From Acidimicrobiia bacterium (GTDB taxonomy: Bacteria > Actinomycetota > Acidimicrobiia > IMCC26256 > PALSA-610), in assembly GCA_038213435.1 (NCBI GenBank), contig JBBQTI010000007.1, positions 16,729 to 80,728 of the forward strand: a DNA stretch of 64,000 nt, read 5' to 3'. Of the stretch, positions 3,688 through 49,528 are shown one piece after another; the stretch's first letter is position 1; every line of letters starts with the position of its first letter. The translations under genes and the position numbers were made by a program. The notes under the pieces are model-generated. The model worked only from the letters and a program-made list of their open reading frames with translations. It made no database searches and had not been told where the DNA came from.

Positions 3688-4908
3688 GTGGACTTCGAGG
3701 AAACCGAAGAGGAGCGCGCGTTCCGGGTCGAGGTGCGGGCCTGGCTCGACGCTCATGCGACGCGGCGGGTTGCCGGGGAACGGTCCGACCACTCGTACAT
3801 GCCGGGTGACGGCAGCCCCGAGGCCGACGCCGCCCACGTGGGCGCGTGCAAGGAGTGGCAGCGCGTCCTCTACGAGGGTGGATGGGCAGGGATCACGTGG
3901 CCGGTCGACGCGGGAGGGCGCGGCGGACCGGGATGGCAACAGCGCATCTTCAACGAAGAGCAATCGCACTACAGCGTGGCCGTCGGTGTCTTCGCCGTGG
4001 GGATCGGCATGGCCGGGCCCACGATCATCGTGTGGGGTACACCCGAGCAGCAGGAGCGCTTCCTGCCCGCGATGTTGCGCGGCGACGACGTTTGGTGCCA
4101 GCTGTTCTCCGAACCGGGCGCGGGCTCCGACCTCGCGGGTTTGCGGACGCGCGCCGAGCGTGACGGCGATGAGTGGACCGCCAACGGTCAGAAGGTGTGG
4201 ACGTCGGGCGCGCACTACAGCGACTGGGGCCTGCTGCTGGTGCGCAGTGATCCCGACGCGCCGAAGCACAAGGGCATCACGGCCTTCCTGCTCGATATGC
4301 GCACGCCGGGAATCGACGTGCGGCCGCTGCGCCAGATCACCGGCGCGTCGCATTTCAACGAGGTGTTCCTCACCGACGTCCGCATTCCCGACTCGATGCG
4401 CGTCGGTCCGCTGGGCGGTGGCTGGCGGGTCGCGAACACGATGCTCTCGAACGAGCGGGCGTTGATCGGCAGCGGTGGGCGGGTCGGCTTCCGGGATCTG
4501 GTCTCACTCGCGCAGCGTTGCGGTGGGAGTGAGGATCCGGTGCTGCGTCAGGAGCTCGCCCGCAGCTACACACGGTTGCAGCTCATCAAGTGGCTCGGCT
4601 GGCGGGCGCGCAGCCGCAAGGACCAGGGCCTCGGTCCGGAGGCCTCGGTCGTCAAGCTCGCCGCGTCGCGCGAGCTCGAGCACGACGGAAACCTGGTGAT
4701 GACTCTGCAGGGCGCGGAGTCGATGCTGTATGACGACGACGCCATCCAGGACGGCTATTGGCAGCAGCAGTTTCTCGGACAATGGAGCAGCCGACTCGGC
4801 GGCGGCACCGAGCAGATCCAGCGCAATGTGATCGGGGAGCGGGTGCTCGGGCTACCGAGCGAGCCGCGGCCCGGCAAGGACACGCCCTTCCGCGAGCTCC
4901 CGAGCTAG
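3688..4908 (+). CDS. acyl-CoA dehydrogenase family protein
   Basis: 406 aa with ACAD N, middle and C-terminal signatures (WCQLFSEPGAGSDLAGLRTRAERDGDEWTANGQKVWTSGA; GGGTEQIQRNVIGERVLGLP). It ends in TAG at 4906-4908, which is also the first triplet of the 56-bp repeat. Confidence 0.85.
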   Translation: MDFEETEEERAFRVEVRAWLDAHATRRVAGERSDHSYMPGDGSPEADAAHVGACKEWQRVLYEGGWAGITWPVDAGGRGGPGWQQRIFNEEQSHYSVAVGVFAVGIGMAGPTIIVWGTPEQQERFLPAMLRGDDVWCQLFSEPGAGSDLAGLRTRAERDGDEWTANGQKVWTSGAHYSDWGLLLVRSDPDAPKHKGITAFLLDMRTPGIDVRPLRQITGASHFNEVFLTDVRIPDSMRVGPLGGGWRVANTMLSNERALIGSGGRVGFRDLVSLAQRCGGSEDPVLRQELARSYTRLQLIKWLGWRARSRKDQGLGPEASVVKLAASRELEHDGNLVMTLQGAESMLYDDDAIQDGYWQQQFLGQWSSRLGGGTEQIQRNVIGERVLGLPSEPRPGKDTPFRELPS

Positions 4909-5001
4909 GGAGACGACAGCGCAGCGACCGGAGGGGAGCGGAGCGTGGAGTCGACCCGGAAGTAGGGAGACGACCGCGCAGCGACCGAAGGGGGGCGGAG
5001 C
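4906..5001 (+). repeat. two tandem units (57 bp each) of the GGAG-dense stop-codon-abutting repeat family
   Basis: Unit 1 is TAGGGAGACGACAGCGCAGCGACCGGAGGGGAGCGGAGC followed by GTGGAGTCGACCCGGAAG. Unit 2 is TAGGGAGACGACCGCGCAGCGACCGAAGGGGGGCGGAGC, followed by the GTG at 5002. The same unit, in reverse complement, forms the array at 22205-22466. Confidence 0.9.
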
Positions 5002-5283
5002 GTGCAGCTCGACGAGTTCCAGGATTTGATGGCCCGCACCTTCGGTGCGCGCGACCGCAGCCGCGGCATCGACGCGACCGTCGCCTGGCTCGCGGAGGAG
5101 CTCGGCGAGCTGGCGCGGGCCGTCCGCAAGGGCAGCCGCGACGAGCAGCTCCACGAAATCGGCGATGTCCTCGCCTGGCTGGCGTCACTGACCGATCAGC
5201 TCGGGCTGTCGCTCGACGGCGCGGCTGCCCGCTACCGGTCGGGCTGCCCGCGCTGTCGCGCGCTCCCGTGCTCGTGTCCGTGA
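5002..5283 (+). CDS. MazG-like nucleotide pyrophosphohydrolase domain protein
   Basis: 93 aa. MQLDEFQDLMARTFG...LAEELGELARAV...EIGDVLAWLASL matches the small MazG/NTP-PPase EExxE...D pattern. The GTG start sits at the repeat's own GTG position. Confidence 0.75.
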   Translation: MQLDEFQDLMARTFGARDRSRGIDATVAWLAEELGELARAVRKGSRDEQLHEIGDVLAWLASLTDQLGLSLDGAAARYRSGCPRCRALPCSCP

Positions 5284-5364
5284 CCCGCGCTAGATCGCGA
5301 CGCGCGCGGGCGGACGGTACCCTCGCCCGGAGGTCGTGCGCACGCCTTTCGGGAGGATCGACCG

Positions 5365-6768
5365 GTGCGAATCATCGTTGTGGGCGGCGGGACCGCGGGA
5401 CTCGGCACCGCGCTCGCGTGCGCGCGCGACGGGCACGAGGTCACGGTGCTCGAACGTGACGACACTCCGATGCCGACCGACGCAAACGCCGCGTTCGAGT
5501 GGGTGCGCACCGGCGCGCCACAGGTGCGCCATTCGCACGCCTTCCTCGCGCGCCTGCGTAACCTGCTGCGCGAGCGCGCCCCCGACGTGCTCGACGCGCT
5601 CCTTGCCGCGGGTGCGTCGGAGATCGCGTTCACCGAGCACCTGCCCCCGACCCTCACCGATCGATTGCCGCGTCCGGGTGACGATGAGCTCGTGGCGCTT
5701 GCGTGCCGGCGTACCACGTTCGAATGGGTTCTGCAGAGGCTCGTGCTCGATGAGCCGGGCGTCGAGCTGCGTCATGGTGTCACGGCCGGCGAACTCGTCG
5801 CGCATTCGGGAGGGGTCCCGCTCGTCGTCGGCGTCGACGGAAGTCGGGCCGATCTGGTGGTCGACGCCCGCGGTCCGCGCTCGTCATCCGACGCTTGGCT
5901 CTCGGCGATCGCGGCGCCGCCGGCTCACGAGGAGCTCCACGAGAGCGGCATCATCTACTTCTCGCGGTTTTACCGGGTCCACGGCGGCGTCGAGGCGCCG
6001 CCGTACGTCGGGCCGACCGCGGCCGATCTCGGCTATCTCAAGTACGCCATCTTCCTGGGTGACAACCGGACCTTTTCGATCACCTACGCGATCGAAAGTC
6101 ATGACGAAGAGATGCGGCGCGCCCTCGCCGCGCCCGATGGCTTCGAAACCGTCGCCCGGTCGCTCGTCGCCACCGCGCCCTGGCGCGTCGACGGTGTCGC
6201 CGATCCGATCACCGGTGTGCACGTCATGGCAGGGCTGCGCAACCGGTACCGACCTCTCGTCGACGGCGAGGGCGAGCCGCTCGTGCACGGATTCGTCGCG
6301 GTGGGCGACGCGTCGGTGTGCACGAATCCGCTCTACGGACGCGGCTGCAGCCTCGCGTTCGTGCACGCGTTCGGCCTGGCCGATTCGCTGCGCGAGCACG
6401 CCGGCGATCTCGACGGACTCGGCCGTGCGTTCGCCGAGTTCACCGAACGCGAACTGGTGCCGTGGTTCCGTTCGGCCGTTTTGCAGGATGCGCAGGCTCG
6501 TGCGCTGCACGAGGAGCTGCCGCCCGAAGACCCGCGCGCCTTCATGCAGGCCGTGTTCCGTGAGGGACTCCTCCCGGCGATGCGCACGTCGCCCGTCGTG
6601 TTCCGGGCGTTTCTGCGGTGGTTCAACCTCTTGGCCACTCCCGACGCGCTCATGGCCGATCCCGAGATCGTGGGCGAGGTTCTCGCCGCCTACGACGACC
6701 GGCACAACCGTCCCGGACCACCGGTCCTCGGCCCCGACCGCGAGACGCTGCTGCTCGATCTCGCCTGA
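5365..6768 (+). CDS. FAD-dependent oxidoreductase (monooxygenase/reductase-like)
   Basis: N-terminal dinucleotide fold MRIIVVGGGTAGLGTALACARDGHEVTVLER. 467 aa, with a later GD motif (VAVGDASVCTNPLYGRG). Confidence 0.75.
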   Translation: MRIIVVGGGTAGLGTALACARDGHEVTVLERDDTPMPTDANAAFEWVRTGAPQVRHSHAFLARLRNLLRERAPDVLDALLAAGASEIAFTEHLPPTLTDRLPRPGDDELVALACRRTTFEWVLQRLVLDEPGVELRHGVTAGELVAHSGGVPLVVGVDGSRADLVVDARGPRSSSDAWLSAIAAPPAHEELHESGIIYFSRFYRVHGGVEAPPYVGPTAADLGYLKYAIFLGDNRTFSITYAIESHDEEMRRALAAPDGFETVARSLVATAPWRVDGVADPITGVHVMAGLRNRYRPLVDGEGEPLVHGFVAVGDASVCTNPLYGRGCSLAFVHAFGLADSLREHAGDLDGLGRAFAEFTERELVPWFRSAVLQDAQARALHEELPPEDPRAFMQAVFREGLLPAMRTSPVVFRAFLRWFNLLATPDALMADPEIVGEVLAAYDDRHNRPGPPVLGPDRETLLLDLA

Positions 6769-20735: not shown

Positions 20736-21644
20736 TTACCGCAGTTCGGTTCGGACCGTCGCGAGTTGCTCGAACGACCGCAACACCGGGTCCTGGTCGT
20801 CGGCGAGGTGGCGGACGATGATGTCGGTACAACCCGATGCCCGCAGATCCGCGAACGCGTCGGTTACGCGGCCCGGTCCGCCGATTACGACCGCCGAGGG
20901 GTCGAAACCGCGGTATCCACGCGCGACGATCGGGTCCGCGACGGCGGCCGCCTGCTCGTCGGTAGCGGCGAGGTGGACGTCGCGGCGCACGGCGATCCGG
21001 GTTGGCTCGCGGCCGTGACGAACGCAGGCATCCCGGTAGCTCTGCACGAGTGCATCGACCTCGGCCGGTGTCGCTTCGGGGCCGATCAGGAAGGCGTCAC
21101 CCAGACGGGCCGCGCGATCGACGGCGCGCGGAGCCGCGGCACCGATCCATACCTCGAGCGGCTCCGGTGGGACCGGCGCGATCTGGGCCCGGTCGATCTT
21201 CCACGGTCCGTCGGGTACGGTCACCGACTCACCGCGGCACAACGTGCGCACGATCTCGAGCGCGGCCTCGAAGCGCGTCGCGCGCTCGCGCGACGAGGTG
21301 TCGAATGCGCGGAACTGCTCGTCGCCCGCGCCGACGGCGCACTGCATGATGAAGGGTCCACGGGCGATCGCGGCGAGCGTGCCGATCTGTTCCGCGACCA
21401 GTACCGGATGCCACAAGGGCAGCAGGAACAGCGCTCCCGCCGGGCGCCCGTCCCACTCGGCGAGCAGGCGACCGAGGATGGGGACGTTTTGGTAGTAGGG
21501 AACCGGGACGTTGTGGTGGTCGCCGACGAAGAGGCTGTCGAGGCCCGCCTCGGCCGCGGCCTTCGCCCGCTCGATCATCCACTTGGCGCCGACGCGCGCG
21601 TCCATCGGTGCGTACCCGCTCCGCAACGAAACGCCGATTTCCAT
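20736..21644 (-). CDS. LLM-class flavin/F420-dependent oxidoreductase
   Basis: MEIGVSLRSG...LDSLFVGDHH... luciferase-like TIM-barrel pattern. The alternative start is 21674. Confidence 0.7.
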   Translation of the reverse strand: MEIGVSLRSGYAPMDARVGAKWMIERAKAAAEAGLDSLFVGDHHNVPVPYYQNVPILGRLLAEWDGRPAGALFLLPLWHPVLVAEQIGTLAAIARGPFIMQCAVGAGDEQFRAFDTSSRERATRFEAALEIVRTLCRGESVTVPDGPWKIDRAQIAPVPPEPLEVWIGAAAPRAVDRAARLGDAFLIGPEATPAEVDALVQSYRDACVRHGREPTRIAVRRDVHLAATDEQAAAVADPIVARGYRGFDPSAVVIGGPGRVTDAFADLRASGCTDIIVRHLADDQDPVLRSFEQLATVRTELR

Positions 21645-21672
21645 CCTTGCAGCCTCGCGCGAAGATGCACCC

Positions 21673-22191
21673 ATGGCGACTCTCGATCGCGACCTCGTGG
21701 CCCTGGCAGAACGCCGCGCCGAGCTGCGCGCAAAGTTCCTGCGTCCCCCCGACTCACGCGCCGCGTCGAACGGCGGCGGAGTACATCACCTCGCATTGAT
21801 CTGTGCGGATCCCGAGCGAACGATTTCCTTCTACCAGGACGTGCTCGGCTTCCCGCTCGTCGAGCTGTTCGAGAACCGCGACTACGAAGGCTCGTCCCAC
21901 TTCTTCTTCGACATCGGCGCGGGCAACATGCTCGCGTTCTTCGACTTCCCCGGCCTCGGCCTCGAGCCGGTTCCGGAAGGCCTCGGCGGCGTGCAGCACG
22001 TTGCCATCTCGGTGACACCCGCGACGTTCGAGCTGCTGAAGGGCAGGCTCGAGGGCGCGGGCGTGGCGTATATCGGGCCCGACCGCGGGATCAAGGAGTC
22101 GGTGTACTTCAAGGATCCCGACGGCATCCAGGTCGAGCTGATCCGCCAGCCGCTGATGGAGGTGCCGGAGAGCGCGCCGCAAGGCGGCTGA
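21673..22191 (+). CDS. VOC (glyoxalase/bleomycin resistance/dioxygenase) family protein
   Basis: VHHLALICADPERTISFYQDVLGFPLVE...VQHVAISV...VYFKDPDGIQVELI paired beta-alpha-beta-beta-beta pattern. Confidence 0.8.
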   Translation: MATLDRDLVALAERRAELRAKFLRPPDSRAASNGGGVHHLALICADPERTISFYQDVLGFPLVELFENRDYEGSSHFFFDIGAGNMLAFFDFPGLGLEPVPEGLGGVQHVAISVTPATFELLKGRLEGAGVAYIGPDRGIKESVYFKDPDGIQVELIRQPLMEVPESAPQGG

Positions 22192-22204: not shown

Positions 22205-22466
22205 GCTCCGCTCCCTCCGGTCGCTGCGCTGTCGTCTCGCTACTCCTGGGTCGACTCCAAGCTCCGCTCCCTCGGGTCGCTGCGCTGTCGTCTCGCTACT
22301 CCTGGGTCGACTCCACGCTCCGCTCCCTCGGGTCGCTGCGCTGTCGTCTCGCTACTCCTGGGTCGACTCCACGCTCCGCTCCCTCCGGTCGCTGCGCTGT
22401 CGTCTCGCTACTCCTGGGTCGACTCCACGCTCCGCTCCCTCCGGTCGCTGCGCTGTCGTCTCGCTA
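22205..22466 (-). repeat. head-to-tail array of 4.7 x 56 bp of the GGAG-dense stop-codon-abutting repeat
   Basis: Unit starts at 22205, 22261, 22317, 22373 and 22429, an exact 56-bp period. The minus-strand sense unit is TAGCGAGACGACAGCGCAGCGACC(G/C)GAGGGAGCGGAGCGTGGAGTCGACCCAGGAG. The first TAG (22466-22464) is the stop codon of ccdA. There are no unique spacers. Confidence 0.95.
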
Positions 22467-23252
22467 ACCGAGCTCCACCAACCACTCGAGGTGCGCGTCG
22501 GTGAGCCACGTCTGCAGGTGCAGGCTCAGGCGCGAGAGCTCGTCGAACATCAGGAGCAGTCCGAAGGCGCCGATGACCGCGGCGGACCCGCCGACGATGA
22601 CCGAGAAGTGGCGCCTCACCCAGCCGAGCGCGCCGCCGAGCCGGCCGAGGAGCAGGCCGGTGAGCAGGAACGGCAGGCCGAGGCCGAGCGAGTAGACCGC
22701 GAGCAACGTTCCACCGGCCCACACGCGATGCTGGTTCGCCGCGATGCCGAGGATCGAGCCGAGGATCGGACCGATGCACGGCGACCAGCCGAAGCCGAAC
22801 GCCACCCCCGCGATCGCGGGCGCAGCGTCGCCGAAGCGACCGAGCCGAGGATGAAAGCGCTTCTCCTGGTACAGCCACGGCGCGTGCAGGAACAGGGAGC
22901 CGAGGAGGAACAGCGCCATCGCCAACATCAGCGTGCCTGACAGGCGCGTGAGGAGGCTCTGGTGATCTCGCAACTGCCGGCCGAGGGCGGTGGCCGACAA
23001 TCCCCACGCGACGAACACCGTGCCGAATCCGGCGACGAACCACGCGGTCGTGGCGACGATGCGCCGAGCGTGTACCCGCGACTGGTCTTGCAGCTCGGCG
23101 AGATCGAGACCGGACACCATCGAGAGATAGCCCGGCACGAGGGGCAGCACGCACGGCGAGAGGAACGAGACGACTCCGCCGCCGAATGCGGCGAGATACG
23201 CGAGCACGTTGACGTCGCCGATGCGAGTTCCGAGTGCGACGATCGCAATCAC
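22464..23252 (-). CDS. ccdA: cytochrome c biogenesis / thiol-disulfide electron transporter CcdA (DsbD family)
   Basis: FGGGVVSFLSPCVLPLVPGYL and FGWSPCIGPILG, the two conserved Cys-Pro motifs. Polytopic membrane protein. Confidence 0.85.
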   Translation of the reverse strand: MIAIVALGTRIGDVNVLAYLAAFGGGVVSFLSPCVLPLVPGYLSMVSGLDLAELQDQSRVHARRIVATTAWFVAGFGTVFVAWGLSATALGRQLRDHQSLLTRLSGTLMLAMALFLLGSLFLHAPWLYQEKRFHPRLGRFGDAAPAIAGVAFGFGWSPCIGPILGSILGIAANQHRVWAGGTLLAVYSLGLGLPFLLTGLLLGRLGGALGWVRRHFSVIVGGSAAVIGAFGLLLMFDELSRLSLHLQTWLTDAHLEWLVELG

Positions 23253-25633: not shown

Positions 25634-26851
25634 GTGTCACCATGGGTCGTGGCCAACTCCCCGTCTCGAATCTCTGCCCGCATCGCCGCCATCCAGGAGT
25701 CCGCGACCCTCGCCGTCGACGCCAAGGCCAAGGCTCTGAAGGCTGCGGGCGAGAACGTCATCGGTTTCGGAGCCGGCGAGCCCGACTTCCCGACCCCCCG
25801 AAACGTGGTGGAGGCGGCGATCGCGGCGTGTCGTGAGCCCCGATACCACCACTATTCGCCGACACCGGGCCTGCCCGAGTTGCGCGAGGCGATCGCGTTC
25901 AAGACCAAGCGGGACTCCGGGGTCGATTGCTCGGCCGCGCAGGTCGTCGTGACGAACGGCGGGAAGCACGCCGTGTACAACACGTTCCAAGTCCTGTGCA
26001 ACGAAGGCGACGAGGTGTTGGTGCCGGCGCCGTACTGGACTTCCTACCCCGAGGTGATCACCCTCGCGGGCGGCGTGCCGGTTGTGCTTCCTACGTCGGA
26101 AGCCGACGGATTCCGCGTCGGAATCGATCAGCTGGAGGCGGCGTGGTCACCCCGCACCAAGGCGCTGTTGTTCGTCTCGCCGAGCAACCCGACCGGCGCG
26201 GTATACCCCTCCGAGGAGGTGGAAGCAATCGGCCGGTGGGCGCTCGATCGCGGCATCTGGGTCGTCACTGATGAGATCTACGAGCACCTGACCTACGACG
26301 GCCACGTGTTCTCGTCGATGCCGGGTCTGGTGCCCGAGCTCATGGATCGCTGCGTGATCCTGAACGGCGTCGCGAAAACGTATGCGATGACCGGCTGGCG
26401 CGTGGGCTGGATGATCGGCCCGCCCGACGTGACCGCCGCGGCGACCAACCTGCAGTCGCATTCGACCTCGAACGTGTCGAACGTCGCGCAGGTGGCCGCG
26501 CTCGCCGCGGTGAGCGGCGACCTGTCGGCCGTCGCCGAGATGCGGGGTGCATTCGCGCGACGCGGCCACACGATGTACGAGCTCTTGTCGAAGATCGAAG
26601 GTGTGAGCGTCCTCGCCCCGCAGGGCGCGTTCTATTGCTTTCCCTCCTTCGAAGCGGTGCTCGGGCGAGAGATCGCCGGCCGTACCCCGCAGACCACTCT
26701 CGAGCTGTGTGCGCTGCTGCTCGAGATCGCGAAGGTCGCGATCGTTCCGGGCGAGGCGTTCGGCGCGCCCGGCTACGCCCGGTTGTCGTTCGCGCTCGGC
26801 GACGACGACCTGGGTGTCGGGATGCGGCGGATCGCGGAGCTCCTGTCGTAA
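25634..26851 (+). CDS. pyridoxal-phosphate-dependent aminotransferase (aspartate aminotransferase class I)
   Basis: [62 protein letters not shown] (PLP Lys). The GTG start is uncertain: 25634 or 25649. Confidence 0.85.
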
Positions 26852-26889
26852 CTACTCGTCGGGACTACTCGTCGGGACTACTCGCAGGG
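26851..26889 (+). repeat. 13-bp tandem repeat x3 (ACTACTCGTCGGG, ACTACTCGTCGGG, ACTACTCGCAGGG)
   Basis: It starts on the last base of the aminotransferase TAA stop (26849-26851) and lies in the spacer before serA. Confidence 0.85.
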
Positions 26890-31610: not shown

Positions 31611-32207
31611 CTATGCCAGGGCCGACGGCAGCCAGGTTGGCCTGGTCGACTCGTAGACGTCGATCGCGTCGGCGTGTCGCAACGACAGACCGATGTCGTC
31701 GAGACCGTTGAGCAATCGGTATTGCGTGAAGTCGTCGAGCTCGAACGAGACATCGAGGTCGATGGCCGGCGCGGCGACGCGCTTGCGCTCCACGTCGACG
31801 ACGATCTCGAGGTTCGGGTCTTCCTCGATTGCTTCCCAGAGACGGTGAACCGCGGCCTCGGGGATCGCCGCGACGACGAGGCCCATCTTGCCCGCGTTAT
31901 TGCGAAAGATATCGGCGAAGCGCGTCGAGAGCACCGCCCGGAAGCCATAGTCCATGAGCGCCCAAACGGCGTGCTCTCGTGACGAGCCGGTGCCGAAGTT
32001 CGGGCCCGCGACGAGAACGTTTGCGCCCTCGTAGCGCGCCTGGTTGAGCACGAAATCGGAGTTCTCGCGCCACTCCGAGAACAATCCCTCGCCGAAACCG
32101 GTGCGCTCGACGCGCTTCAGCCAGTCGCTCGGGATGATCTGATCGGTATCGACGTCGGAGCGCACCAGCGGCAATCCGCGCCCGGTGATCACATTTACCT
32201 TCTCCAT
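31611..32207 (-). CDS. leuD: 3-isopropylmalate dehydratase small subunit
   Basis: [26 protein letters not shown]...GPNFGTGSSREHA. The ATG overlaps the leuC stop (ATGA). Confidence 0.9.
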   Translation of the reverse strand: MEKVNVITGRGLPLVRSDVDTDQIIPSDWLKRVERTGFGEGLFSEWRENSDFVLNQARYEGANVLVAGPNFGTGSSREHAVWALMDYGFRAVLSTRFADIFRNNAGKMGLVVAAIPEAAVHRLWEAIEEDPNLEIVVDVERKRVAAPAIDLDVSFELDDFTQYRLLNGLDDIGLSLRHADAIDVYESTRPTWLPSALA

Positions 32208-33691
32208 CAGCTCAGGTCTTCCGGAGTCGAGAAGCGACCCGCGATCGCGGTCGCGGCCGCGACCGCGGGCGAGACGAGGTGCGTGCGGCCGCCCTTGCCC
32301 TGACGGCCTTCGAAGTTGCGATTCGACGTCGATGCGCAACGCTCGCCCGGGGCGAGCTTGTCGGGATTCATTGCCAGGCACATCGAGCAGCCCGGTTCGC
32401 GCCAGTCGAAACCGGCTTCGCGGAACACCCGGTCGAGGCCTTCCGACTCGGCTTGGGCCTTGACCGCGGCCGACCCCGGAACCACGAGCGTCCGCACGCC
32501 GGTCTTGACCTGGCGACCGCGGGCGACGGCCGCCGCGACCCGCAGGTCCTCGATCCGCGAGTTCGTGCACGAGCCGATGAAAACGGTGTCGACCGCGATG
32601 TCGCGCATCGGTGTACCCGCCTTCAGACCCATGTACACGAGTGCCCGCTTGGCCGACTCCCTCGCCGATTCGTCGCTGAAAGTATCGGGATCGGGAACGG
32701 TGTCGTCGATCGGGATCGTCTGCGCGGGATTCGTACCCCACGACACGTGGGGTCGCAACGTTGTCGCGTCGATGAAGACCTCCTTGTCGAAGGCGGCGTC
32801 GGGGTCGGTGACGAGCGTTCGCCAGTCGTCGACCGCGCGTTCCCACTCCGCGCCTTGCGGTGCGAACTCCCGCCCGTTGACGTACGCGAACGTCGCGTCG
32901 TCGGGGGCGACCAGGCCGGCGCGGGCGCCGGCTTCGATCGACATGTTGCAGACCGTCATCCGGCCCTCGATCGACAGGCCACGGATCGCCGAACCGCGGT
33001 ACTCGATGACGGAGCCGATGCCACCGCCCGTGCCGATGCGGGCGATGATCGCGAGCACGATGTCCTTGGCCGACACGCTCGAGGGCACGTTGCCGTCGAC
33101 CGTGATCGCCATCGTCCCGGGCCTCATCTGCGGCAGCGTCTGAGTCGCGAGCACGTGCTCGACCTCGCTCGTGCCGATGCCGAATGCCAACGCGCCGAAT
33201 GCGCCGTGGGTAGAGGTGTGGCTGTCGCCGCACACGATCGTCATGCCCGGCTGCGTGAGTCCCTGCTCCGGTCCGATGACGTGGACGATCCCTTGCCCCG
33301 GATCGCGCATGCCGTAGAGCCGGATACCGAACTCTTCGCAGTTGCGCGCGAGCACGTCCATCTGCTTGGCGGAGATCGGATCGGTCAGCGGCTTGTCGAG
33401 GCCGGCGGTGGGCACGTTGTGGTCCATCGTCGCCACGGTGAGCTCGGGTCGGCGCACACGTCGGCCCGCGGCGCGCAGACCGTCGAACGCCTGCGGCGAG
33501 GTCACTTCGTGCACCAGATGCAAGTCGACGTAGAGGAGGTCGGGCTCGTCGGACGCGGAGTGGACGACGTGGCGCTCCCAGAGCTTCTCGGACAGTGTCC
33601 TCGGGGTCGCTGTCCTCGGGGTCGCTGTCCTCGGGGTCAGTGTCTTCGGGGTTGCGGTCTTCGGGGTTGCGGTCTTCGGGGTCGTCGCCAT
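32207..33691 (-). CDS. leuC: 3-isopropylmalate dehydratase large subunit with a repeat-encoded N-terminal extension
   Basis: Aconitase-family motifs ([35 protein letters not shown]). ATG 33691 with AGGAG 6 nt upstream. Residues 2-31 are (TP[KR]T[AL]) x6. Confidence 0.9.
33597..33686 (-). repeat. 15-bp in-frame tandem repeat x6 inside the 5' end of leuC
   Basis: Plus-strand units are GTCCTCGGGGTCGCT x2, GTCCTCGGGGTCAGT, GTCTTCGGGGTTGCG x2 and GTCTTCGGGGTCGTC. They encode [30 protein letters not shown]. Confidence 0.9.
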
Positions 33692-33702
33692 GGGTTGCTC
33701 CT

Positions 33703-33719
33703 GTCTCAGTGTATGAGAC
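33703..33719. promoter_or_regulatory. inverted repeat GTCTCA-N5-TGAGAC in the 42-bp leuC / IclR-regulator divergent spacer (candidate operator)
   Basis: Perfect 6-bp arms read directly from the sequence. It is located between ATG 33691 (leuC, minus) and GTG 33734 (IclR gene, plus). Confidence 0.4.
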
Positions 33720-33733
33720 GCTAGTATCGCTAG

Positions 33734-34459
33734 GTGGTCAGTGTAACAAGCGGCATCCAGGTGGTCGATCGCGCCGTGCTGGTTCTCGACGCGGTGGCGC
33801 GCGGAGGACCCTGCTCTCTCGCCGAGCTCCAGCGTGCGACCGATCTTCCGCGCCCGACCGCGTATCGGCTCGCGGTTGCGCTCGAACGCCACGGCGTGCT
33901 GGCGCGCGACGCCGACGGGCGCTTCGTGCTCGGTCGGCGCCTGGCGGCATGGGGTGCAGTAGCGGGCCGCGGGCTGCCCGATGCCGGGCGTCCGGTGCTC
34001 GCTCGCCTGGGTGAGACAACCGGCGAGAGCGCGCAACTCTATGTACGCGAGGGTGACCACCGCGTCTGCGTCGCGGTGCACGAGCGGCCGAGCGGTCTGC
34101 GTGACACCGTGCCGCTCGGCGCAGTGTTGCCGCTCGATCGCGGCTCGGGCGGCAAGGTGCTCCTCGCGTGGGCGAGCGACGCGTCCCGGTTCGAGATCAC
34201 GGCGAGTGAGGTCGCGGCCGTGCGTCGGCGCGGCTGGGCCGCGAGCGCGGGCGAACGGGAAGCCGGCGTCGCGAGTGTGAGCGCTCCGGTCTTCGACAGG
34301 CCCGGCGTGGTCGCGGCCGCGATCAGCGTGAGCGGCCCGATCGACCGGCTCGGATTGCATCCCGGCCGCCGGTTGGGGGCTTCGGTCGCGGCCGCGGCGG
34401 CCGACCTCTCGGCCACGCTGCGCGGCACCGGCAACCCCTCGCACGTCACGGGGGGGTAA
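33734..34459 (+). CDS. IclR family transcriptional regulator (LtbR-like position, divergent from leuCD)
   Basis: N-terminal wHTH ([41 protein letters not shown]) plus a C-terminal IclR effector domain. The conserved actinobacterial arrangement next to leuCD supports the call. Confidence 0.8.
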
Positions 34460-34494
34460 CAAGGGCGTAACAAATTGGCCCTACCGTCGGCTCC

Positions 34495-34995
34495 GTGAAC
34501 GTCGAGGTGGTCCGATGGCCCGCTGACGCGCAGCGGCTGGCCGAGCTTCGGGAGCTGCGCATTCCACGGTTGCTGGTCGTGGCGGACGGTGACGGAGAGC
34601 TGCCGTTGCCCGTCGACTGCCTCGAGGACTGGGTGACCCCCGGGGCGCCGGAATGGGAGGTCGATGCCCGCAGGCACGCGCTCGTGTTGCGCTCGGGCCG
34701 GCATGCGGTGCGGCCGCTGCTCGACGAGGACGGCTTGCTCCATCATCGCGACGCCTGGGTCTCGCTCTCACCGGTCGAGCAGGCGCTCGCGGGCGTGTTG
34801 CTCGACCGTTTCGGTGCGGTCGTCACCCGCGAGATGCTCGCCGATCGCGCCTGGCCGTCGGGTGTGCCGACGCGCAACGCGCTCGACGTGCACGTGCTGC
34901 GGTTGCGCCGCCGCATCGCACCCGTGGGTCTCGAGATCCGGACCGTCCGGTCGCGCGGGTATCTCATACAAACCCGCGAGGTCGTGCTGCAGTAG
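34495..34995 (+). CDS. OmpR/PhoB-type winged-helix DNA-binding protein without a recognisable receiver domain
   Basis: The C-terminal LSPVEQALAGVLLDRFGAVVTREMLADRAW...NALDVHVLRLRRRI...IRTVRSRGYLI is a trans_reg_C pattern. The N-terminal ~85 aa are unassigned. It ends in TAG at 34993-34995, the first triplet of a repeat unit. Confidence 0.6.
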   Translation: MNVEVVRWPADAQRLAELRELRIPRLLVVADGDGELPLPVDCLEDWVTPGAPEWEVDARRHALVLRSGRHAVRPLLDEDGLLHHRDAWVSLSPVEQALAGVLLDRFGAVVTREMLADRAWPSGVPTRNALDVHVLRLRRRIAPVGLEIRTVRSRGYLIQTREVVLQ

Positions 34996-35048
34996 GAAGC
35001 GAGACGACAGCGCAGCGACCGAAGGGAGCGGAGCGTGGAATCGACCCA
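34993..35048 (+). repeat. single unit of the GGAG-dense stop-codon-abutting repeat
   Basis: TAGGAAGCGAGACGACAGCGCAGCGACCGAAGGGAGCGGAGCGTGGAATCGACCCATG. Same orientation as the gene whose TAG it shares. Confidence 0.85.
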
Positions 35049-42728: not shown

Positions 42729-43322
42729 ATGGCCCGGGCCGGCGCGGTCCGGCCGATCTCGGTCGAAGTAGTGTCGGCTCTCGTGCCGACCGATCCGTTC
42801 GTGCCGCCCGATCCGAGTGCTCGGCCGCGCCAACAGCAGAACCTGCCTCCCGGTGTGGCACTGCCGGCGGCGACCGACTGGCGCGCCGACCGTCCCGGCG
42901 ACCTCGGCCCGCACCAGCCTGAGGGCGCGTTGTTCGGGCGTCCGGGTCCGAACGTCGGCTATGCGTACACGCTCGCCCAGCGGGCCCGGGACCGGTTGCG
43001 GCTCGGTCCGTTCGAACACGCCGACGACTCGGTCGCGGTGATCGCCGAGATCGCGGGCAAGCGCGCCTCGCTGTTCGGTCGCGCCCCTGTGATCGGCGAC
43101 GTCGATTTCGTCGTGGCGCTGCTCGGATACGACGCCAGCGCAACCGACACCTTCGTCAAGGCGCGATCGGCCCTCGTGCACGAGGCCGGCCACGATTATC
43201 GGCGAAGGCGCGCGCTCGTCGACGCAGTGCCCGATGCGTTGCTGCGGATGCGCACGCCCCAGGCGGCCGCCGAGATCGAGTCGTGGCGCGCCTCGATGCC
43301 CACGCTCGCGGCGTCGGGGTAA
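42729..43322 (+). CDS. hypothetical protein
   Basis: 197-aa GC3-rich ORF starting 3 nt after cimA. No motif recognised. Confidence 0.55.
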   Translation: MARAGAVRPISVEVVSALVPTDPFVPPDPSARPRQQQNLPPGVALPAATDWRADRPGDLGPHQPEGALFGRPGPNVGYAYTLAQRARDRLRLGPFEHADDSVAVIAEIAGKRASLFGRAPVIGDVDFVVALLGYDASATDTFVKARSALVHEAGHDYRRRRALVDAVPDALLRMRTPQAAAEIESWRASMPTLAASG

Positions 43323-43356
43323 CGGGCGCCCGAGCTTCGCGGCGAAAGGTTCGCGG

Positions 43357-44511
43357 TTGACCAGCTTCACCCCGTCTGCAGACCTCGAGGAGTTGCGGGC
43401 ATCCGTTCGGCGCCTGGCCGAAGACAAGATCGCACCGAATGCCGCGCGCGCCGACGAGAACGAGCAGTACCCGTGGGACTCGTGGCACGCGTGGCACGAC
43501 GCGGGCTTCGCGGGTCTCGCGTTCCCGGAGGAGCTCGGCGGTCAGGGCGCAGGCTTTCTCGCCCACGCGATCTGCGTGGAGGAGGTGGCGCGCGTCTGTG
43601 CGTCGTCGTCGATCTTCACCTTCATCTCGAAGCTGGCGATGACACCGGTGCTCGACCACGGCGGCGACGCGCTCGCGCGGAAGTACGTCTCCCGCGTCGC
43701 GAGCGGCGAGTGCCAGGCGTCCTATTGCCTCTCGGAGGCCGACGCGGGGAGCGACGTGGCCGGAATGCGCACCAAGGCGGTGCGCGACGGCGACCACTAC
43801 GTGTTGACGGGTCGCAAGCTCTGGATCACGAACGCGGGCGTGAGTGACTTCTACACCGTGTTCGCGAAGACCGATCCCGAAGCGGGCAACCGCGGTATCA
43901 GTTGCTTCGTCGTCGAGAAGGACTTCGCCGGATTCGCGGTGTCGAAGCTCGAGCACAAGATGGGAGTGCGAGGCTCTCCTACCGGAGAGATCGTCCTCGA
44001 CGAATGTGTCGTACCGGCGGAGAACCTCATCGGTGAGCCGGGGCAGGGGTTCGCGTACGCGATGGGCGCGCTCGACCGCTCGCGCCCCCTCGTCGGCGCG
44101 CAGGCCCTGGGCATCGCCCAGGGCGCACTCGACCTCGCGGCCGGCTACCTGCAGGAGCGCAAGCAGTTCGGACGCCGTATCGCCGACTTCCAAGGCTTGC
44201 AGTTCATGCTCGCCGACATGGCGACCGCCGTCGACGCGGCCCGACTGCTCGTGTACCGCGCCTGCGCGCTGCTCGACGACGGGCTCGGCGGCACTCCCAC
44301 GACGGCGAGCGCCTCGTCGATGGCGAAGCTCTTCGCGTCGGACACCGCGATGCGGGTCACCACCGATTGCGTGCAGCTCCTCGGGGGGATCGGCTACACC
44401 AAGGACGTCCCTGCGGAGCGCTTCATGCGCGATGCCAAGATCACGCAAATCTACGAGGGTACGAATCAGATCCAGCGCGTCGTGATCGCCAAGCGGCTCC
44501 TCGGCGGGTGA
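43357..44511 (+). CDS. acyl-CoA dehydrogenase (canonical short/medium-chain type)
   Basis: CLSEADAGSDVAGMRTKAVRDGDHYVLTGRKLWITNA, ERKQFGRRIADFQ, IYEGTNQIQR (catalytic Glu context). TTG 43357 after GAAAGG is the provisional start. Confidence 0.85.
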   Translation: MTSFTPSADLEELRASVRRLAEDKIAPNAARADENEQYPWDSWHAWHDAGFAGLAFPEELGGQGAGFLAHAICVEEVARVCASSSIFTFISKLAMTPVLDHGGDALARKYVSRVASGECQASYCLSEADAGSDVAGMRTKAVRDGDHYVLTGRKLWITNAGVSDFYTVFAKTDPEAGNRGISCFVVEKDFAGFAVSKLEHKMGVRGSPTGEIVLDECVVPAENLIGEPGQGFAYAMGALDRSRPLVGAQALGIAQGALDLAAGYLQERKQFGRRIADFQGLQFMLADMATAVDAARLLVYRACALLDDGLGGTPTTASASSMAKLFASDTAMRVTTDCVQLLGGIGYTKDVPAERFMRDAKITQIYEGTNQIQRVVIAKRLLGG

Positions 44512-44545
44512 CGACGCCAGGTTGCCTCGTAGAATCAGAGATCCG

Positions 44546-45961
44546 ATGAGCCAGGTTCGCCTCCGCTTCTCGCCCGCGCCGACAGGGTTCCTGCACATCG
44601 GCAGCGTGCGTACCGCGCTCTACAACTGGCTGCACGCGCGCCACACCGCCGGCACGTTCATCCTCCGGATCGAGGACACCGATATCGCCCGGTCGACGCA
44701 GGAGTCGGTCGACCAGATCCAGCACGTGCTGCGCTGGTTGGGTCTTGACTGGGACGACGGACCCTACCTGCAGAGCACGCGATTCGACGCGTACCTCGCG
44801 GCGGCTCACCGCATGGTCGAAGAGCAGCGCGCGTACGAGTGTTACTGCACCGAGGACGAGGTCCGCGAACGCAACGAGCAGGCGATGCGCGCCGGCCGGC
44901 CGCCGGGCTACGACGGGCGGTGTCGCCATCTGACCCCGGCCGACCGGGGCGCGCGCGTTGACGAGGGTCGGATGCCGTCCATTCGATTCCGGACCCCCGA
45001 CGACGGTCGCAGCTCCTTCACCGACGTGATCCGCGGCGAGGTCTCGGTCGAGTGGTCGACGATTTCCGACTTCGTGATCGTCCGATCGAACGGCACGCCG
45101 GTGTTCTTCCTCGCGAACGCGGTCGACGACCTCGACATGGAGATCACGCACGTGTTGCGCGGAGAGGACCTCATCGACTCGACCCATCGCGTCCTCGCGC
45201 TCCGCCGCGCCCTCGGACACGACGATCAGCCGGTGTACGCGCACATGCCGCTGATCCTCGGCCCCGGCGGGGCGAAGCTGTCGAAGCGCCACGGTGCCGT
45301 ATCGGTCGAGGAGTATCGCGACGCGGGGTTCCTACCCGCGGCGCTCTTGAATTACCTCGCGCTGCTCGGTTGGGGTACCGAGGACGGCCGCGAGATCCTC
45401 AGCCTCGAGGAGCTCGTTGCCGAGTTCGAGCTCGAGCGCGTGAACACCTCGGCCGCGACGTTCGACCCCAAGAAGCTCGAGTGGATGAACGGAGAGCACA
45501 TCCGGGCCACGCCGCTGCCCGACCTCGTGTCGGTCGTGCTGCCGTTCGCGCGCACGCGGTACGGCGCGCGGCTCGACATCCCGCGTTTCGAGGCCGCGGT
45601 CCGGCTGGCACAACTACGCGCGACGACGCTCGTGCAGATCGCCGACCAGATGGCGTTTCTCTTCACGCCCGACGACGAGCTCGAGATCGATCCCGCATCG
45701 TGGGAGAAGCTGACCAAGGTCGAGAACGTGGCGGCGATCCTGGATGCCGTCATCGAGTTCGTGCGCGATTGCGAGTGGAGCGACGAGATCGACCCGCGGC
45801 CCGCGATCGAAGCACTCGGCCTCAAGCCCGGCAAGGTCATGCACGTCCTGTACTCCGCGATCGAGGGTCGAAGCCAAGGTTTGCCGCTGTTCGACTCGAT
45901 CAGCCTGCTGCGCCGCGACTCGGCCCTCAACCGCCTGCGGGCCGCTCGCGCCCGTCTGTGA
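44546..45961 (+). CDS. gltX: glutamate--tRNA ligase
   Basis: RFSPAPTGFLHIGSVRTALYNW (HIGH) and KLSKRHG (KMSKS). It is followed by tRNA-Gln and tRNA-Glu, as in other actinobacteria. Confidence 0.9.
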   Translation: MSQVRLRFSPAPTGFLHIGSVRTALYNWLHARHTAGTFILRIEDTDIARSTQESVDQIQHVLRWLGLDWDDGPYLQSTRFDAYLAAAHRMVEEQRAYECYCTEDEVRERNEQAMRAGRPPGYDGRCRHLTPADRGARVDEGRMPSIRFRTPDDGRSSFTDVIRGEVSVEWSTISDFVIVRSNGTPVFFLANAVDDLDMEITHVLRGEDLIDSTHRVLALRRALGHDDQPVYAHMPLILGPGGAKLSKRHGAVSVEEYRDAGFLPAALLNYLALLGWGTEDGREILSLEELVAEFELERVNTSAATFDPKKLEWMNGEHIRATPLPDLVSVVLPFARTRYGARLDIPRFEAAVRLAQLRATTLVQIADQMAFLFTPDDELEIDPASWEKLTKVENVAAILDAVIEFVRDCEWSDEIDPRPAIEALGLKPGKVMHVLYSAIEGRSQGLPLFDSISLLRRDSALNRLRAARARL

Positions 45962-46665
45962 GGCTCGCCCTCAAGATCTCGCGGCGCGTCGCCATCGCGC
46001 TGTTCGCCGTCGGGCTCGCGTATCTGTCCGTCGTGTTCGTGCAGGTGTGGTTGGCGGCGCGCCGGGACGACGCCCGTCCGTCCGACGCGATCATCGTGCT
46101 CGGGGCAGCACAGTTCGACGGTCGTGCGTCGAAGATCCTCTCGGCGCGGCTCGATCACGCCGTCGACCTGTACCGCCGCGGTATCGCGCCCGTCGTCGTC
46201 GTGACGGGCGGCCGGCAACCGGGCGACCGCTTCACGGAGGCGAGCGTCGGTGCGAGCTATCTGCACGATCACCAGGTCCCCGAGCGCGCGATCCTGCGTG
46301 AGACGACCGGTCGGTCGTCGTGGCAGTCGCTCGCCGCGGCTGCACGCTTCCTGAAGGAGCGCCACCTCACGCGCGTCGTGCTCGTCTCCGATCCGTACCA
46401 TTCGGCGCGCGTCGAAGACGTCGCGCACGACGTCGGGTTGCAAGGGGCGACGTCGCCCACCCGCACGAGCCCGATCAAGGGCGCGGGCGAATGGCGGCGG
46501 TTCGGCACCGAGACCATCCGTGTCGCCGCCGGGCGCATCTTCGGCTACGGCCGACTCGACCGGCATCGCGAGGTCGAGAGGCTCGTACCGGGACTCGCTA
46601 CACTGTGCCCTCCGTTGCGGCGGCCGGAGCGGCGTCGCAAGGGCACCCATTCGGGGGTGGTGTAA
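45958..46665 (+). CDS. YdcF/ElyC (DUF218) family protein
   Basis: The GTG overlaps the gltX stop (GTGA). TM anchor IALFAVGLAYLSVVFVQVWL, then AIIVLGAAQ...VVVTGG...VLVSDPYH. The last 15 nt, including the stop, overlap the 5' end of tRNA-Gln. Confidence 0.7.
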   Translation: MRLALKISRRVAIALFAVGLAYLSVVFVQVWLAARRDDARPSDAIIVLGAAQFDGRASKILSARLDHAVDLYRRGIAPVVVVTGGRQPGDRFTEASVGASYLHDHQVPERAILRETTGRSSWQSLAAAARFLKERHLTRVVLVSDPYHSARVEDVAHDVGLQGATSPTRTSPIKGAGEWRRFGTETIRVAAGRIFGYGRLDRHREVERLVPGLATLCPPLRRPERRRKGTHSGVV

Positions 46666-46722
46666 TCGGCAACACGACAGGTTCTGGCCCTGTTATTGGG
46701 GGTTCGAGTCCTCCCCCCCGAG
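46651..46722 (+). tRNA. tRNA-Gln (anticodon CTG)
   Basis: Hand-folded cloverleaf: acceptor TCGGGGG/CCCCCGA, anticodon stem ACAGG/CCTGT with loop TTCTGGC, T-arm GGGGG-TTCGAGT-CCTCC. No encoded CCA. Confidence 0.85.
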
Positions 46723-46737
46723 CGCAGCCGGAGACAT

Positions 46738-46813
46738 GCCCCGTTCGTCTAGCGGCCCAGGACGCCAGGTTCTCATCCTGGTAACACGGGTTCAAATCCC
46801 GTACGGGGTGCCA
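46738..46813 (+). tRNA. tRNA-Glu (anticodon CTC)
   Basis: Acceptor GCCCCGT/ACGGGGT, anticodon stem CCAGG/CCTGG with loop TTCTCAT, T-arm ACGGG-TTCAAAT-CCCGT. CCA is encoded. Confidence 0.85.
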
Positions 46814-46852
46814 TGTGGCCCGAGCAAATGCCGCTCGGGCCACATTTCTTTT
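46813..46852 (+). terminator. rho-independent terminator after the tRNA pair
   Basis: 13-bp perfect stem ATGTGGCCCGAGC / GCTCGGGCCACAT (46813-46825 and 46833-46845), followed by TTCTTTT. Confidence 0.8.
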
Positions 46853-46991
46853 GCGGACGCGTTCTCGGCGCGCGAGGTCACGCTGTGCGCGCATCGAGCA
46901 GACTGCGCGTGCAGTAGCAACGGCGTGCCAACGTCAAGACCGCGTCACCGCGCGCGCCGCGTCGAATGCCGCGCGATCGACGCGACACCCG

Positions 46992-47210
46992 TCATTGCGC
47001 GACGCGGATCTCGTTGTCGCGCACGATGAGCGTGCACGCCAAACCGACGAGTGAAAGCGGATCGCGCGCGACATAACTGCTGGTCACGATGTTGATGACC
47101 TCGCCGCGCTGTTCGCCGGACGTGATCGTGCACTCGAGCGCGACACCGTCATCGCGTTGCTCGGCCCAGATGATGAACGCGTCGTACGTTCCGTCGCGGA
47201 GCATCGTCAT
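46992..47210 (-). CDS. hypothetical small protein (72 aa)
   Basis: MTMLRDGTYDAFIIWAEQRDDGVALECTITSGEQRGEVINIVTSSYVARDPLSLVGLACTLIVRDNEIRVAQ. GC3-rich. The upstream 22 codons of the track ORF are Arg-rich. Confidence 0.45.
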   Translation of the reverse strand: MTMLRDGTYDAFIIWAEQRDDGVALECTITSGEQRGEVINIVTSSYVARDPLSLVGLACTLIVRDNEIRVAQ

Positions 47211-47400
47211 AAGCGTCGCGGCACGCCGACTCGTGCGATCTCCGAGCAATCCGCACGCGCGTCTCCGCGCATCCAACGATCTTGGCAGAAGTCGCGCAAC
47301 GAGTGGTGGATACCACGCGCGTTGCGTGAGAAATGCTTGACGTATCTAGGTGAATACGTTCTCATAACACGAACACACACGCAGTGCGTGGAGGTCTTAC

Positions 47401-47679
47401 GTGAACAAAGGCGAACTCGTCGACGCGATCGCGACCGACGCGAACATCAGCAAGACGGATGCCGAGAGCGCGCTCAACGCGTTCATCAACAGCGTTCAAT
47501 CCGCGATCACCGCGGGCGAGAAGGTGACGCTCCCGGGTTTTGGGACGTTCTCGCCGGCGTTGCGCAAAGCGCGTACTGGTATGGATCCGCGCACCCGGGC
47601 GCCGGTGCAGATCCCCGAGCGCAAGAGCGCGAAGTTCTCCGTGGGCTCGAAGTTCAAAGCCCAGGTGCAAGGGTCCTGA
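47401..47679 (+). CDS. hup: HU family DNA-binding protein (core domain only)
   Basis: VNKGELVDAIA...GEKVTLPGFGTFS...RTGMDPRTRAPVQIPERKSAKFSVGSKFK. GGAGG lies 7 nt upstream of the GTG. Confidence 0.9.
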   Translation: MNKGELVDAIATDANISKTDAESALNAFINSVQSAITAGEKVTLPGFGTFSPALRKARTGMDPRTRAPVQIPERKSAKFSVGSKFKAQVQGS

Positions 47680-47764
47680 TCGCGTAGGGCGTGGGGTCGC
47701 ACTCCCTCGCGCACCGAATGACCTATGAAGTTCGAACTTCCTCGAGTGAGAGCTCTCAGGAAAG

Positions 47765-48049
47765 GTGGTGACCGTGCCTCCGGCTAAAAAGGCAACGAAG
47801 AGAAGGGCTGCCAAGAAGGCTCCGGCCAAGCGCAAGGCCGCGAAGAAGGCGCCCGCGAAGCGGAAGACGACCAAGCGCAAGGCGGCCAAGAAGACCGTCA
47901 AGCGCAAGGCGGCCAAGAAGAAGGCTCCGGCCAAGCGCAAGGCGGCCAAGAAGAAGGCTCCCGCCAAGAAGCGCCGCAAGGCCGCGAAGAAGGCGCCGGC
48001 GAAGCGTGCCGTGCGTCGCACGACGCGCAAGCGCGCAGCGAAGAAATAG
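47765..48049 (+). CDS. Lys/Ala/Pro-rich histone-H1-like basic repeat protein
   Basis: 94 aa made of AAKKAPAKRK-type repeats. Own SD-like AGGAAAGG upstream. In-frame alternative GTG starts at 47768 and 47774. Confidence 0.65.
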   Translation: MVTVPPAKKATKRRAAKKAPAKRKAAKKAPAKRKTTKRKAAKKTVKRKAAKKKAPAKRKAAKKKAPAKKRRKAAKKAPAKRAVRRTTRKRAAKK

Positions 48050-48066
48050 CAACGCTGCGGACGTCT

Positions 48067-48100
48067 CGAAGAAGGACCCGGGCAACCGGGTCCTTCTTCG
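48067..48100. terminator. 15-bp perfect hairpin with a GCAA tetraloop between convergent genes (I-shaped, no U-tract)
   Basis: CGAAGAAGGACCCGG-GCAA-CCGGGTCCTTCTTCG, read directly from the sequence. Confidence 0.6.
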
Positions 48101-48110
48101 CGTCGCGTTG

Positions 48111-48185
48111 GCGCGGCGCTGTCGTCTCCCTGTTTTCCGGGTCGACTCCACGCTCCGCTCCCGTCGCGCCGCTGTCGTCTCCCTA
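48111..48185 (-). repeat. about 1.4 units of the GGAG-dense stop-codon-abutting repeat
   Basis: The minus strand reads TAGGGAGACGACAGCGGCGCGACGGGAGCGGAGCGTGGAGTCGACCCGGAAAACAGGGAGACGACAGCGCCGCGC. The first TAG (48185-48183) is the stop of the PIG-L deacetylase gene. Confidence 0.85.
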
Positions 48186-49519: not shown

Positions 49520-49528
49520 TGGCTGCGT

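Follow-up and report, generated by a model that had tools for sequence, protein, structure and literature searches.

Mycobacterial interspersed repetitive units (MIRUs) are the closest described counterpart of the element reported here. They consist of 40-100-bp units, occur in about 40-50 copies per genome and are transcribed with the flanking genes; their ends overlap the adjacent genes, both empty and filled sites are known, and an internal open reading frame (ORF) is coupled to the downstream gene, an arrangement believed to keep the burden of insertion low (Supply et al. 1997, summarised in PMC12548453 and PMC3184786). The dispersal of MIRU-type elements and their tolerance inside operons are unsettled, and nearly all that is known of them is mycobacterial. 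Related principles are represented by termination-reinitiation coupling and by the leader ORFs of synthetic bicistronic designs (reviewed in PMC12548453). Dispersed non-coding satellite families are rare according to a survey of prokaryotes, which encountered them only in Leptospira interrogans and Methanocella conradii among its reference genomes (PMC6749651). Here we describe a stretch of 64,000 nt from an Acidimicrobiia bacterium (contig JBBQTI010000007.1, positions 16,729 to 80,728 of the forward strand; "the window" below, with all positions counted from its first nucleotide), in which a tandem repeat separates a gene for an acyl-CoA dehydrogenase (ACAD) from a gene for a MazG-like nucleoside triphosphate (NTP) pyrophosphohydrolase. 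The repeat, at 4906-5004, is probably an array of 1.7 units from a minisatellite of uncultured Acidimicrobiia that is dispersed over intergenic sites with a bias in orientation; the array was inserted at a conserved gene row and appears to supply the Shine-Dalgarno sequence (SD) of MazG.

The anatomy of the junction (Table 1) had first been described in a sequence-only reading, and its coordinates and sequence were verified: two 57-nt repeat units span the region from the ACAD stop to the MazG GTG, the ACAD stop being the first triplet of unit 1, the stop of a mini-ORF in unit 1 being the first triplet of unit 2, and the GTG that opens the MazG-like ORF lying, behind an SD-like run of the repeat, exactly 57 nt past the GTG of the mini-ORF. 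The ACAD TAG, the mini-ORF GTG, the TAG of unit 2 and the MazG GTG all share one reading frame. Up to the GTG the two units are identical at 39 of 42 positions and differ at 3; in unit 1 the core extends over approximately 4908-4956 (positions 2-50 of the nhmmer model) and is followed by the linker GGAAG at 4958-4962. A 40-nt degenerate pattern derived from both units matched only these two sites in the window and nothing in 100 dinucleotide shuffles. No promoter or terminator, including any terminator-like U-run, was found in a scan of 4500-5500.

Table 1. Features of the ACAD-MazG junction and other copies of the repeat family in the window
Feature	Position	Strand	Sequence, evidence or context
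ACAD gene, 406 aa	3688-4908	+	ORF; three ACAD Pfam domains; TAG stop 4906-4908
Repeat unit 1, complete, 57 nt	4906-4962	+	TAGGGAGACGACAGCGCAGCGACCGGAGGGGAGCGGAGCGTGGAGTCGACCCGGAAG; opening triplet is the ACAD TAG
SD-like run of unit 1, 5' of mini-ORF	4930-4944	+	GGAGGGGAGCGGAGC; anti-SD duplex energy
Mini-ORF, 6 codons and stop	4945-4965	+	GTG GAG TCG ACC CGG AAG TAG; direct read; TAG 4963-4965 opens unit 2
Repeat unit 2, cut at internal GTG (MazG start codon)	4963-5004	+	TAGGGAGACGACCGCGCAGCGACCGAAGGGGGGCGGAGC GTG; sequence comparison with unit 1
SD-like run of unit 2, 5' of MazG	4987-5001	+	GAAGGGGGGCGGAGC; anti-SD duplex energy
MazG-like NTP pyrophosphohydrolase gene, 93 aa, GTG start	5002-5283	+	PF03819, E = 8.7e-9 (Pfam)
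Array B, about 5 units, 56-nt period	22205-22466	-	Starts on TAG 22464-22466 of a CcdA/DsbD-like membrane protein gene (22464-23252, -)
Single unit	35000-35047	+	4 nt past TAG 34993-34995 of a winged-helix regulator gene (34495-34995); next gene starts at 35097
One decayed unit and a partial second	48113-48185	-	Starts on TAG 48183-48185 of a PIG-L-like gene (48183-48908, -); hairpin after

The start of the MazG-like gene at 5002 is well supported by orthology. Among the best 120 of thousands of homologues nearly all are 93 aa long, cover 100% of the query and begin with MQLDEFQ, with residues L3, F6, Q7, L9 and M10 invariant, and there is no in-frame start codon between the TAG at 4963 and position 5002, in agreement with the earlier impression that MQLDEFQDLM is a genuine MazG N-terminus. 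The gene row ferredoxin-SDR-ACAD-MazG is conserved in orthologous loci, in which ACAD is likewise 406 aa long and ends in ...FRELPS*. We compared about 20 distinct loci of this kind (L001-L015, L024, L063-L066, L179, L180), and the repeat is absent from all their ACAD-MazG junctions. The spacers measure 0-53 nt: a TAGTG overlap in L063, TAGggagaacgcacATG in L064 and L179, TAGggggaaacgcgcATG in L066, TAGcgagggggcggtcATG in L024 and L180, TAGcgaggggacggtcGTG in L065, TGAcgcgccagactgcgccATG in L007-L011, and an unrelated 53-nt sequence in L001-L006. The repeat-free orthologues all resume at (A/G)TGCAGCTCGAC, and their MazG begins (A/G)TG CAG CTC GAC GA at the same codon, which is mostly ATG and in two cases (L063, L065) GTG. 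The 36 nt that precede the MazG start in the window, the SD-like run included, are repeat sequence found in no orthologue. Since some 20 repeat-free junctions share the same start position, this comparison identifies the array as a lineage-specific insertion that replaced the native spacer, and the start position as ancestral. No genome closer than 94% was found at this locus. One metagenome-assembled genome (MAG), DATJAA01, has an empty junction (L009) and yet carries the repeat family elsewhere (L089).

Anti-SD duplex energies were computed for the 22 nt upstream of each start. They amount to -11.8 kcal/mol for MazG in the window (3' end of the duplex 6 nt from the GTG) and -10.0 kcal/mol for the mini-ORF (9 nt from its GTG), compared with -6.6 to -10.7 kcal/mol in the five closest orthologue types and +0.4 to -3.5 kcal/mol in more distant orthologues, the distance to the start varying in both groups; random 22-mers from the window average -3.5 kcal/mol. 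The repeat therefore seems to supply the present MazG SD, in place of one that the nearest relatives already possess. It had been proposed that the element donates both the SD and the GTG and so provides the initiation region, and that alignment of orthologous junctions would reveal whether these had pre-existed. The first part stands insofar as the 36 nt upstream, with their strong SD, are repeat and have no equivalent in any junction compared; the position of the start codon was not brought by the repeat, being shared by every orthologue, GTG itself occurs there in two repeat-free ones (its first G in the window may be of repeat or of native origin), and the closest relatives already have a native G-rich SD.

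The same data bear on two other accounts of the junction. The SD and GTG context could be native and resemble the repeat by chance, and one short segment does behave in this way: CAGCTCGAC, just past the GTG, resembles the unit's GAGTCGAC and is native MazG sequence. For the context as a whole such a coincidence is extremely improbable in view of the near-identity of the two units, the empty result with shuffles, the presence of the same core at more than 70 other loci and a 93-nt spacer that is absent from all orthologues, and the orthologue comparison refutes it. Alternatively, the element could be ancestral at the junction and have been lost in the relatives, with the spacers of the nearest ones, TAGCGAGGGGGCGGTC-ATG and TAGGGAGAACGCAC-ATG, as deletion footprints that retained the SD. 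The resemblance of these spacers to the unit covers its 5' end (TAG[C/G]GAG) as well as a portion of the 3' end (GGGG.CGG..NTG), the spacers of more distant orthologues are unrelated and lack an SD, and another locus shows a 9-nt deletion that fused a TAG to the element (see below). However, similarity to the unit's G-rich 3' end is to be expected of any SD followed by a start codon, the matches extend over just 7-9 nt, the equally close L001 (91%) has the unrelated 53-nt spacer, and no one-unit intermediate was found among the junctions compared, so that we regard ancestral presence followed by loss as unlikely.

Two further differences were noticed next to the junction. The last ACAD codon (Ser, 4903-4905) is AGC in the window and TCG or TCC in all ACAD-linked orthologous junctions read, except for AGT in L014; because the switch between AGC and TCG/TCC needs 2-3 substitutions at the repeat boundary, the insertion may have rewritten the end of ACAD. 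On the other side of MazG, most orthologous loci contain a gene for a 117-aa SnoaL-like protein on the opposite strand, between MazG and an FAD oxidoreductase gene and overlapping the 3' end of MazG (e.g. L001 3201-3554, L007 3260-3613). This gene is absent from the window, where the gap (5284-5364) is merely 81 nt, and apparently also from L063 and L180.

The window contains four loci of the repeat (Table 1), each beginning on or 4 nt after the TAG of the co-oriented upstream gene, and the existence of these related copies identifies the junction repeat as a member of a family rather than a local duplication. Array B occupies the whole gap up to a convergent glyoxalase-family gene, and the GTG...TAG mini-ORF recurs in it. 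We sampled the family by scanning the 20-mer GAGACGACNGCGCAGCGACC against species-representative genomes, which yielded at least 111 stretches, with units called by nhmmer. Nearly all the matches listed come from uncultured Acidimicrobiia/Actinomycetota MAGs of several species and comprise more than 70 arrays in related MAGs, with 1-11 units each and a period of 56-58 nt. The unit consists of a core of about 48-50 nt, GGAGACGACAGCGCAGCGACCGGAGGGGAGCGGAGCGTGGAGTCGACCC, which is nearly invariant across loci and genomes (its 5' half being fixed by the search pattern, while the conservation of its 3' half is independent of it), and of a linker of 8-9 nt, which is identical inside one array, different between arrays and often similar to the local flank. 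No copy of the unit was found in plasmid and phage collections, and no description of the family was found in the literature, including that on repeats in Acidimicrobiia and on MIRU-like elements.

The history of single loci can be followed where orthologues are available. Contig L101 of MAG JALYLU01 is 95% identical to positions 43200-51077 of the window, which indicates that the DNA analysed here comes from a close relative of that MAG. At the PIG-L locus both carry the element, and the unit of L101 is more intact and lies 9 nt further from the stop; relative to L101, 9 nt (agaggctcg) are gone from the window at 48183-48200, TAG is fused to GGAGAC, and the unit has a 5-nt internal deletion. 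Copy number also differs at one orthologous locus, with at least 3 units in L079 and 1 in L082. Near-identical cores across loci combined with decay at single loci fit a spread, or gene conversion, followed by neutral erosion.

Gene context was assigned with a codon log-odds gene finder, which in the window predicts 65 genes (90% coding) and recovers the expected genes around ACAD-MazG. In 27 arrays a co-oriented stop is found no more than 20 nt from the 5' end of the element, compared with 7 arrays in mirror-image arrangement (p = 8e-4). For co-oriented starts no more than 20 nt from the 3' end the corresponding numbers are 15 and 1 (p = 5e-4); between co-directional genes the element is in sense orientation 23 times and in antisense 7 times (p = 0.005). 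Co-orientation with the flanking genes is a bias and not an absolute rule. The abutting stop is TAG in 16 of the 27 cases, compared with 24% of all predicted stops (p = 1e-4). About 9 arrays span the entire gap from stop to start, with the downstream ATG or GTG 0-21 nt past the core (...GTGGAGTCGACCC-ATG), and in these gap-filling arrays the GGAG of the core stands at SD distance from the downstream start. In arrays other than that of ACAD-MazG the downstream gene as a rule begins 0-7 nt past the core and not at the internal GTG, which makes the MazG junction an atypical, truncated case. Eleven arrays lie between convergent genes, where there is no downstream gene to serve.

In several respects the family resembles MIRUs: the 56-58-nt units fall within the 40-100-bp range and are tandem and dispersed in intergenic regions; they are co-oriented with flanking genes (here 23:7, 27:7 and 15:1); the arrays end on the upstream stop and the downstream start; there are filled and empty orthologous sites (2 units here, 0 in about 20 others) and variable copy number; and the same rationale can be proposed, i.e. 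that an ORF or SD borne by the unit keeps the downstream gene translated. The differences are that the host belongs to another class, that the core is nearly invariant and the linker locus-specific, that the internal GTG is rarely the downstream start, and that the family has no conserved unit-long ORF or ATGA-type 4-nt overlap, although at the ACAD-MazG locus TAG and GTG are shared with the genes. Comparison with the 77-bp MIRU of the senX3-regX3 spacer of Mycobacterium tuberculosis (L178) gave a best local score of 15, which equals the mean of 5000 shuffles (p = 0.51), and a likeness to MIRUs in AGCGYAGCGA and a G-rich run proved no better than shuffles and was dropped; lacking significant similarity, the two families are to be regarded as analogous and not homologous. 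On these grounds we propose a new MIRU-like family in Acidimicrobiia.

At the same M. tuberculosis locus (L178, CP012506.2 578409-580379) we noticed that deposited RegX3 proteins (P0121-P0124) include forms of 245-277 aa beside the 227-aa form; the long entries are probably an annotation artefact of gene callers extending the ORF upstream through in-frame MIRU units.

Other described repeats are less similar. REP/BIME and ERIC elements are also short, abundant, transcribed intergenic repeats at gene ends that can form hairpins (PMC3184786, PMC2817692), but REPs, palindromes of 21-65 nt linked to RAYT transposases, often alternate in orientation, whereas the Acidimicrobiia arrays are head-to-tail, weakly palindromic and without covariation; no inverted partner copies were seen inside the arrays. 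With dispersed satellites the family shares the presence of a non-coding tandem repeat at many loci of one genome, but the survey of those (PMC6749651) covers neither Acidimicrobiia nor placement at gene boundaries. Further assignments were considered and rejected. For a miniature inverted-repeat transposable element, only a broken match of about 7 nt joins the ends (GGG..CGAC / GTCG.CCC), and filled and empty sites reveal no target duplication. A CRISPR array would have unique spacers of about 30 nt, as opposed to linkers of about 8-9 nt identical within the array. Against SECIS, PYLIS and integron attC stand the absence of a consistent frame or core-site motif and flanking genes that are syntenic core genes.

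The junction had also been interpreted as a stop-restart relay, in which ribosomes pass from ACAD through the mini-ORF to MazG. Judged from the sequence, such a configuration is real at this locus, where the prerequisites of coupling are present (same strand, SD, in-frame stops and starts), but it is not conserved across the family. The codon at the position of the internal GTG is GTG in 96 of 110 units, GCG in 12, TTG in 1 and ACG in 1; among the 97 units with a start-type codon, the resulting ORF has 5-7 codons in 24 and stays open for more than 25 codons in 62. With the short mini-ORF in 24 of 97 units, a relay is plausible at the locus but is not a selected property of the family. The TAG inside the array is most simply explained as the upstream stop codon copied with the unit during growth of the array (in arrays A and B, the former being that of the ACAD-MazG junction), and a relay would then be a by-product and not a design. 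The stronger proposal, that ribosome transfer from ACAD to MazG via a mini-cistron is the purpose of the element and its function family-wide, is in our view doubtful. It would account for the in-frame succession of TAG, GTG, TAG and GTG with a strong SD ahead of each restart codon, for the recurrence of the mini-ORF in array B, and for a fold of the isolated unit (below) that a terminating ribosome would open, and MIRUs are thought to act likewise; the distribution of ORF lengths just given, the replacement of GTG by GCG, the frame shift caused by units with a 56-nt period, the arrays between convergent genes and the usual start of downstream genes past the core all argue against it. Readthrough of the stop codons to an ACAD-MazG fusion, all elements being in frame, was likewise rejected as a family property, since units with a 56-nt period break the frame. 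With bicistronic designs the locus has in common a short leader ORF that bears the SD of the next gene, ends near its start and could deliver ribosomes or remove inhibitory structure; it differs in the 36 nt that separate the stop from the next start, which neither overlap nor lie within a few nucleotides of each other, and in the chaining of two steps.

The isolated consensus unit is predicted to fold into an imperfect hairpin of -21.3 kcal/mol (z = -3.1), in which the GTG and part of the SD are paired with the 5' arm, while the antisense strand reaches only -14.5 kcal/mol (z = -0.9). Substitutions, deletions and indels concentrate at the predicted apical loop, and one family copy (L090 66-143) has a 30-nt insertion exactly there, with both arms intact. 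Together with the orientation bias, which points to a constraint at the transcript level, these features would suit an RNA structural element, a hairpin placed at gene ends for mRNA stability, processing or masking of starts, to which the translation features would be incidental. We consider this quite unlikely, because the 9 consensus pairs include none with a compensatory change, the consensus fold reaches only -9.6 kcal/mol, the fold in the native context has z = -1.3, there is no terminator-like U-run, and the family has no match in Rfam 15, in which a permissive scan of array B gave a best E of 0.68; the covariation test is uninformative in that the core is nearly invariant. The only matches above the gathering score in the whole window are two adjacent tRNA genes, at 46651-46722 and 46738-46810 (+). 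Given the lack of compensatory pairs and the native-context z, unmasking of the SD and GTG by opening of the hairpin is offered as a model.

The minisatellite insertion that we favour may be pictured as follows. The 5' end of the array is fused to the ACAD TAG, and its last unit breaks off at the internal GTG, to which the second codon of MazG is joined in frame. With a complete unit 1 ahead of a unit 2 that ends at the GTG, the array cannot be the product of local duplication of the truncated unit; more likely, a longer array was trimmed or converted at short flanking similarities (left, TAGGGAGA; right, TG.AG.TCGAC). MazG would be translated by SD-directed initiation at 5002. A helper step is possible, although we give a ribosome relay at this locus distinctly less than an even chance: ribosomes that end ACAD could reinitiate at the repeat SD and the GTG at 4945, translate six codons and terminate at 4963-4965, and so be delivered to, or unfold, the second SD and GTG 36 nt on. 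The family as such may be selfish or neutral, its presence at gene boundaries being tolerated on account of the stop, SD and start-proximal end that the unit carries, along the lines proposed for mycobacterial MIRUs.

Several points weigh against parts of this picture. The hairpin that would mask the SD and GTG gains little from its native context, in which the fold is no better than that of shuffles, and from the consensus pairs, at which compensatory changes are missing; the mini-ORF is missing from most units of the family, and 36 nt from stop to restart is a long distance by the standards of classical coupling. Retrieval with an exact 20-mer has biased the family sample, the home-made gene finder errs (e.g. 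it mis-calls the glyoxalase gene 21511-22191), and the context statistics include some orthologous, non-independent loci.

A bolder reading of the placement data would have the family as an actively spreading intercistronic cassette of Acidimicrobiia that is directed to gene boundaries or persists only there, comes with its own TAG, SD and start-proximal end, and preserves the translation of operons by handing ribosomes over across a hairpin whose foot joins stop and start. We think it improbable; if true, it would represent a second, independently evolved MIRU-type system and imply a general transposase-free dispersal of minisatellites in Actinomycetota.

Some features of the window lie apart from the repeat family. 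There is an HU-like DNA-binding ORF at 47401-47679 (+), and 85 nt on, in a different frame, comes a Lys/Ala-rich ORF of 94 aa at 47765-48049 (+) with AAKKA-type repeats. In many actinobacteria the HU-like and Lys/Ala-rich parts form one HupB/Hlp protein, and gene splitting, a frameshift or a misassembly might explain the pair. Within the minus-strand ORF 32207-34462, upstream of its aconitase/LeuC-like part, a 15-nt tandem repeat of about 6 copies (33593-33685) would encode putative TPKTA/TPRTA pentapeptides, and a perfect 13-nt tandem repeat, ACTACTCGTCGGG, occurs in 2.6 copies at 26851-26884.

For the ACAD-MazG pair itself the consequence of the insertion is modest, the position of the start being unchanged and an SD being already present in the closest relatives. 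For practical work, arrays of this type break short-read assemblies and mislead gene callers, and they are possible strain-typing markers for soil Acidimicrobiia, while pairs of filled and empty sites would be useful for studying the mechanism of insertion. In a broader perspective, a sequence-unrelated family that in an uncultured class follows the same placement rules as MIRUs (5' end on stops, 3' end on starts, an SD in the unit and variable copy number) suggests that this arrangement is a solution reached repeatedly in evolution rather than a peculiarity of mycobacteria.

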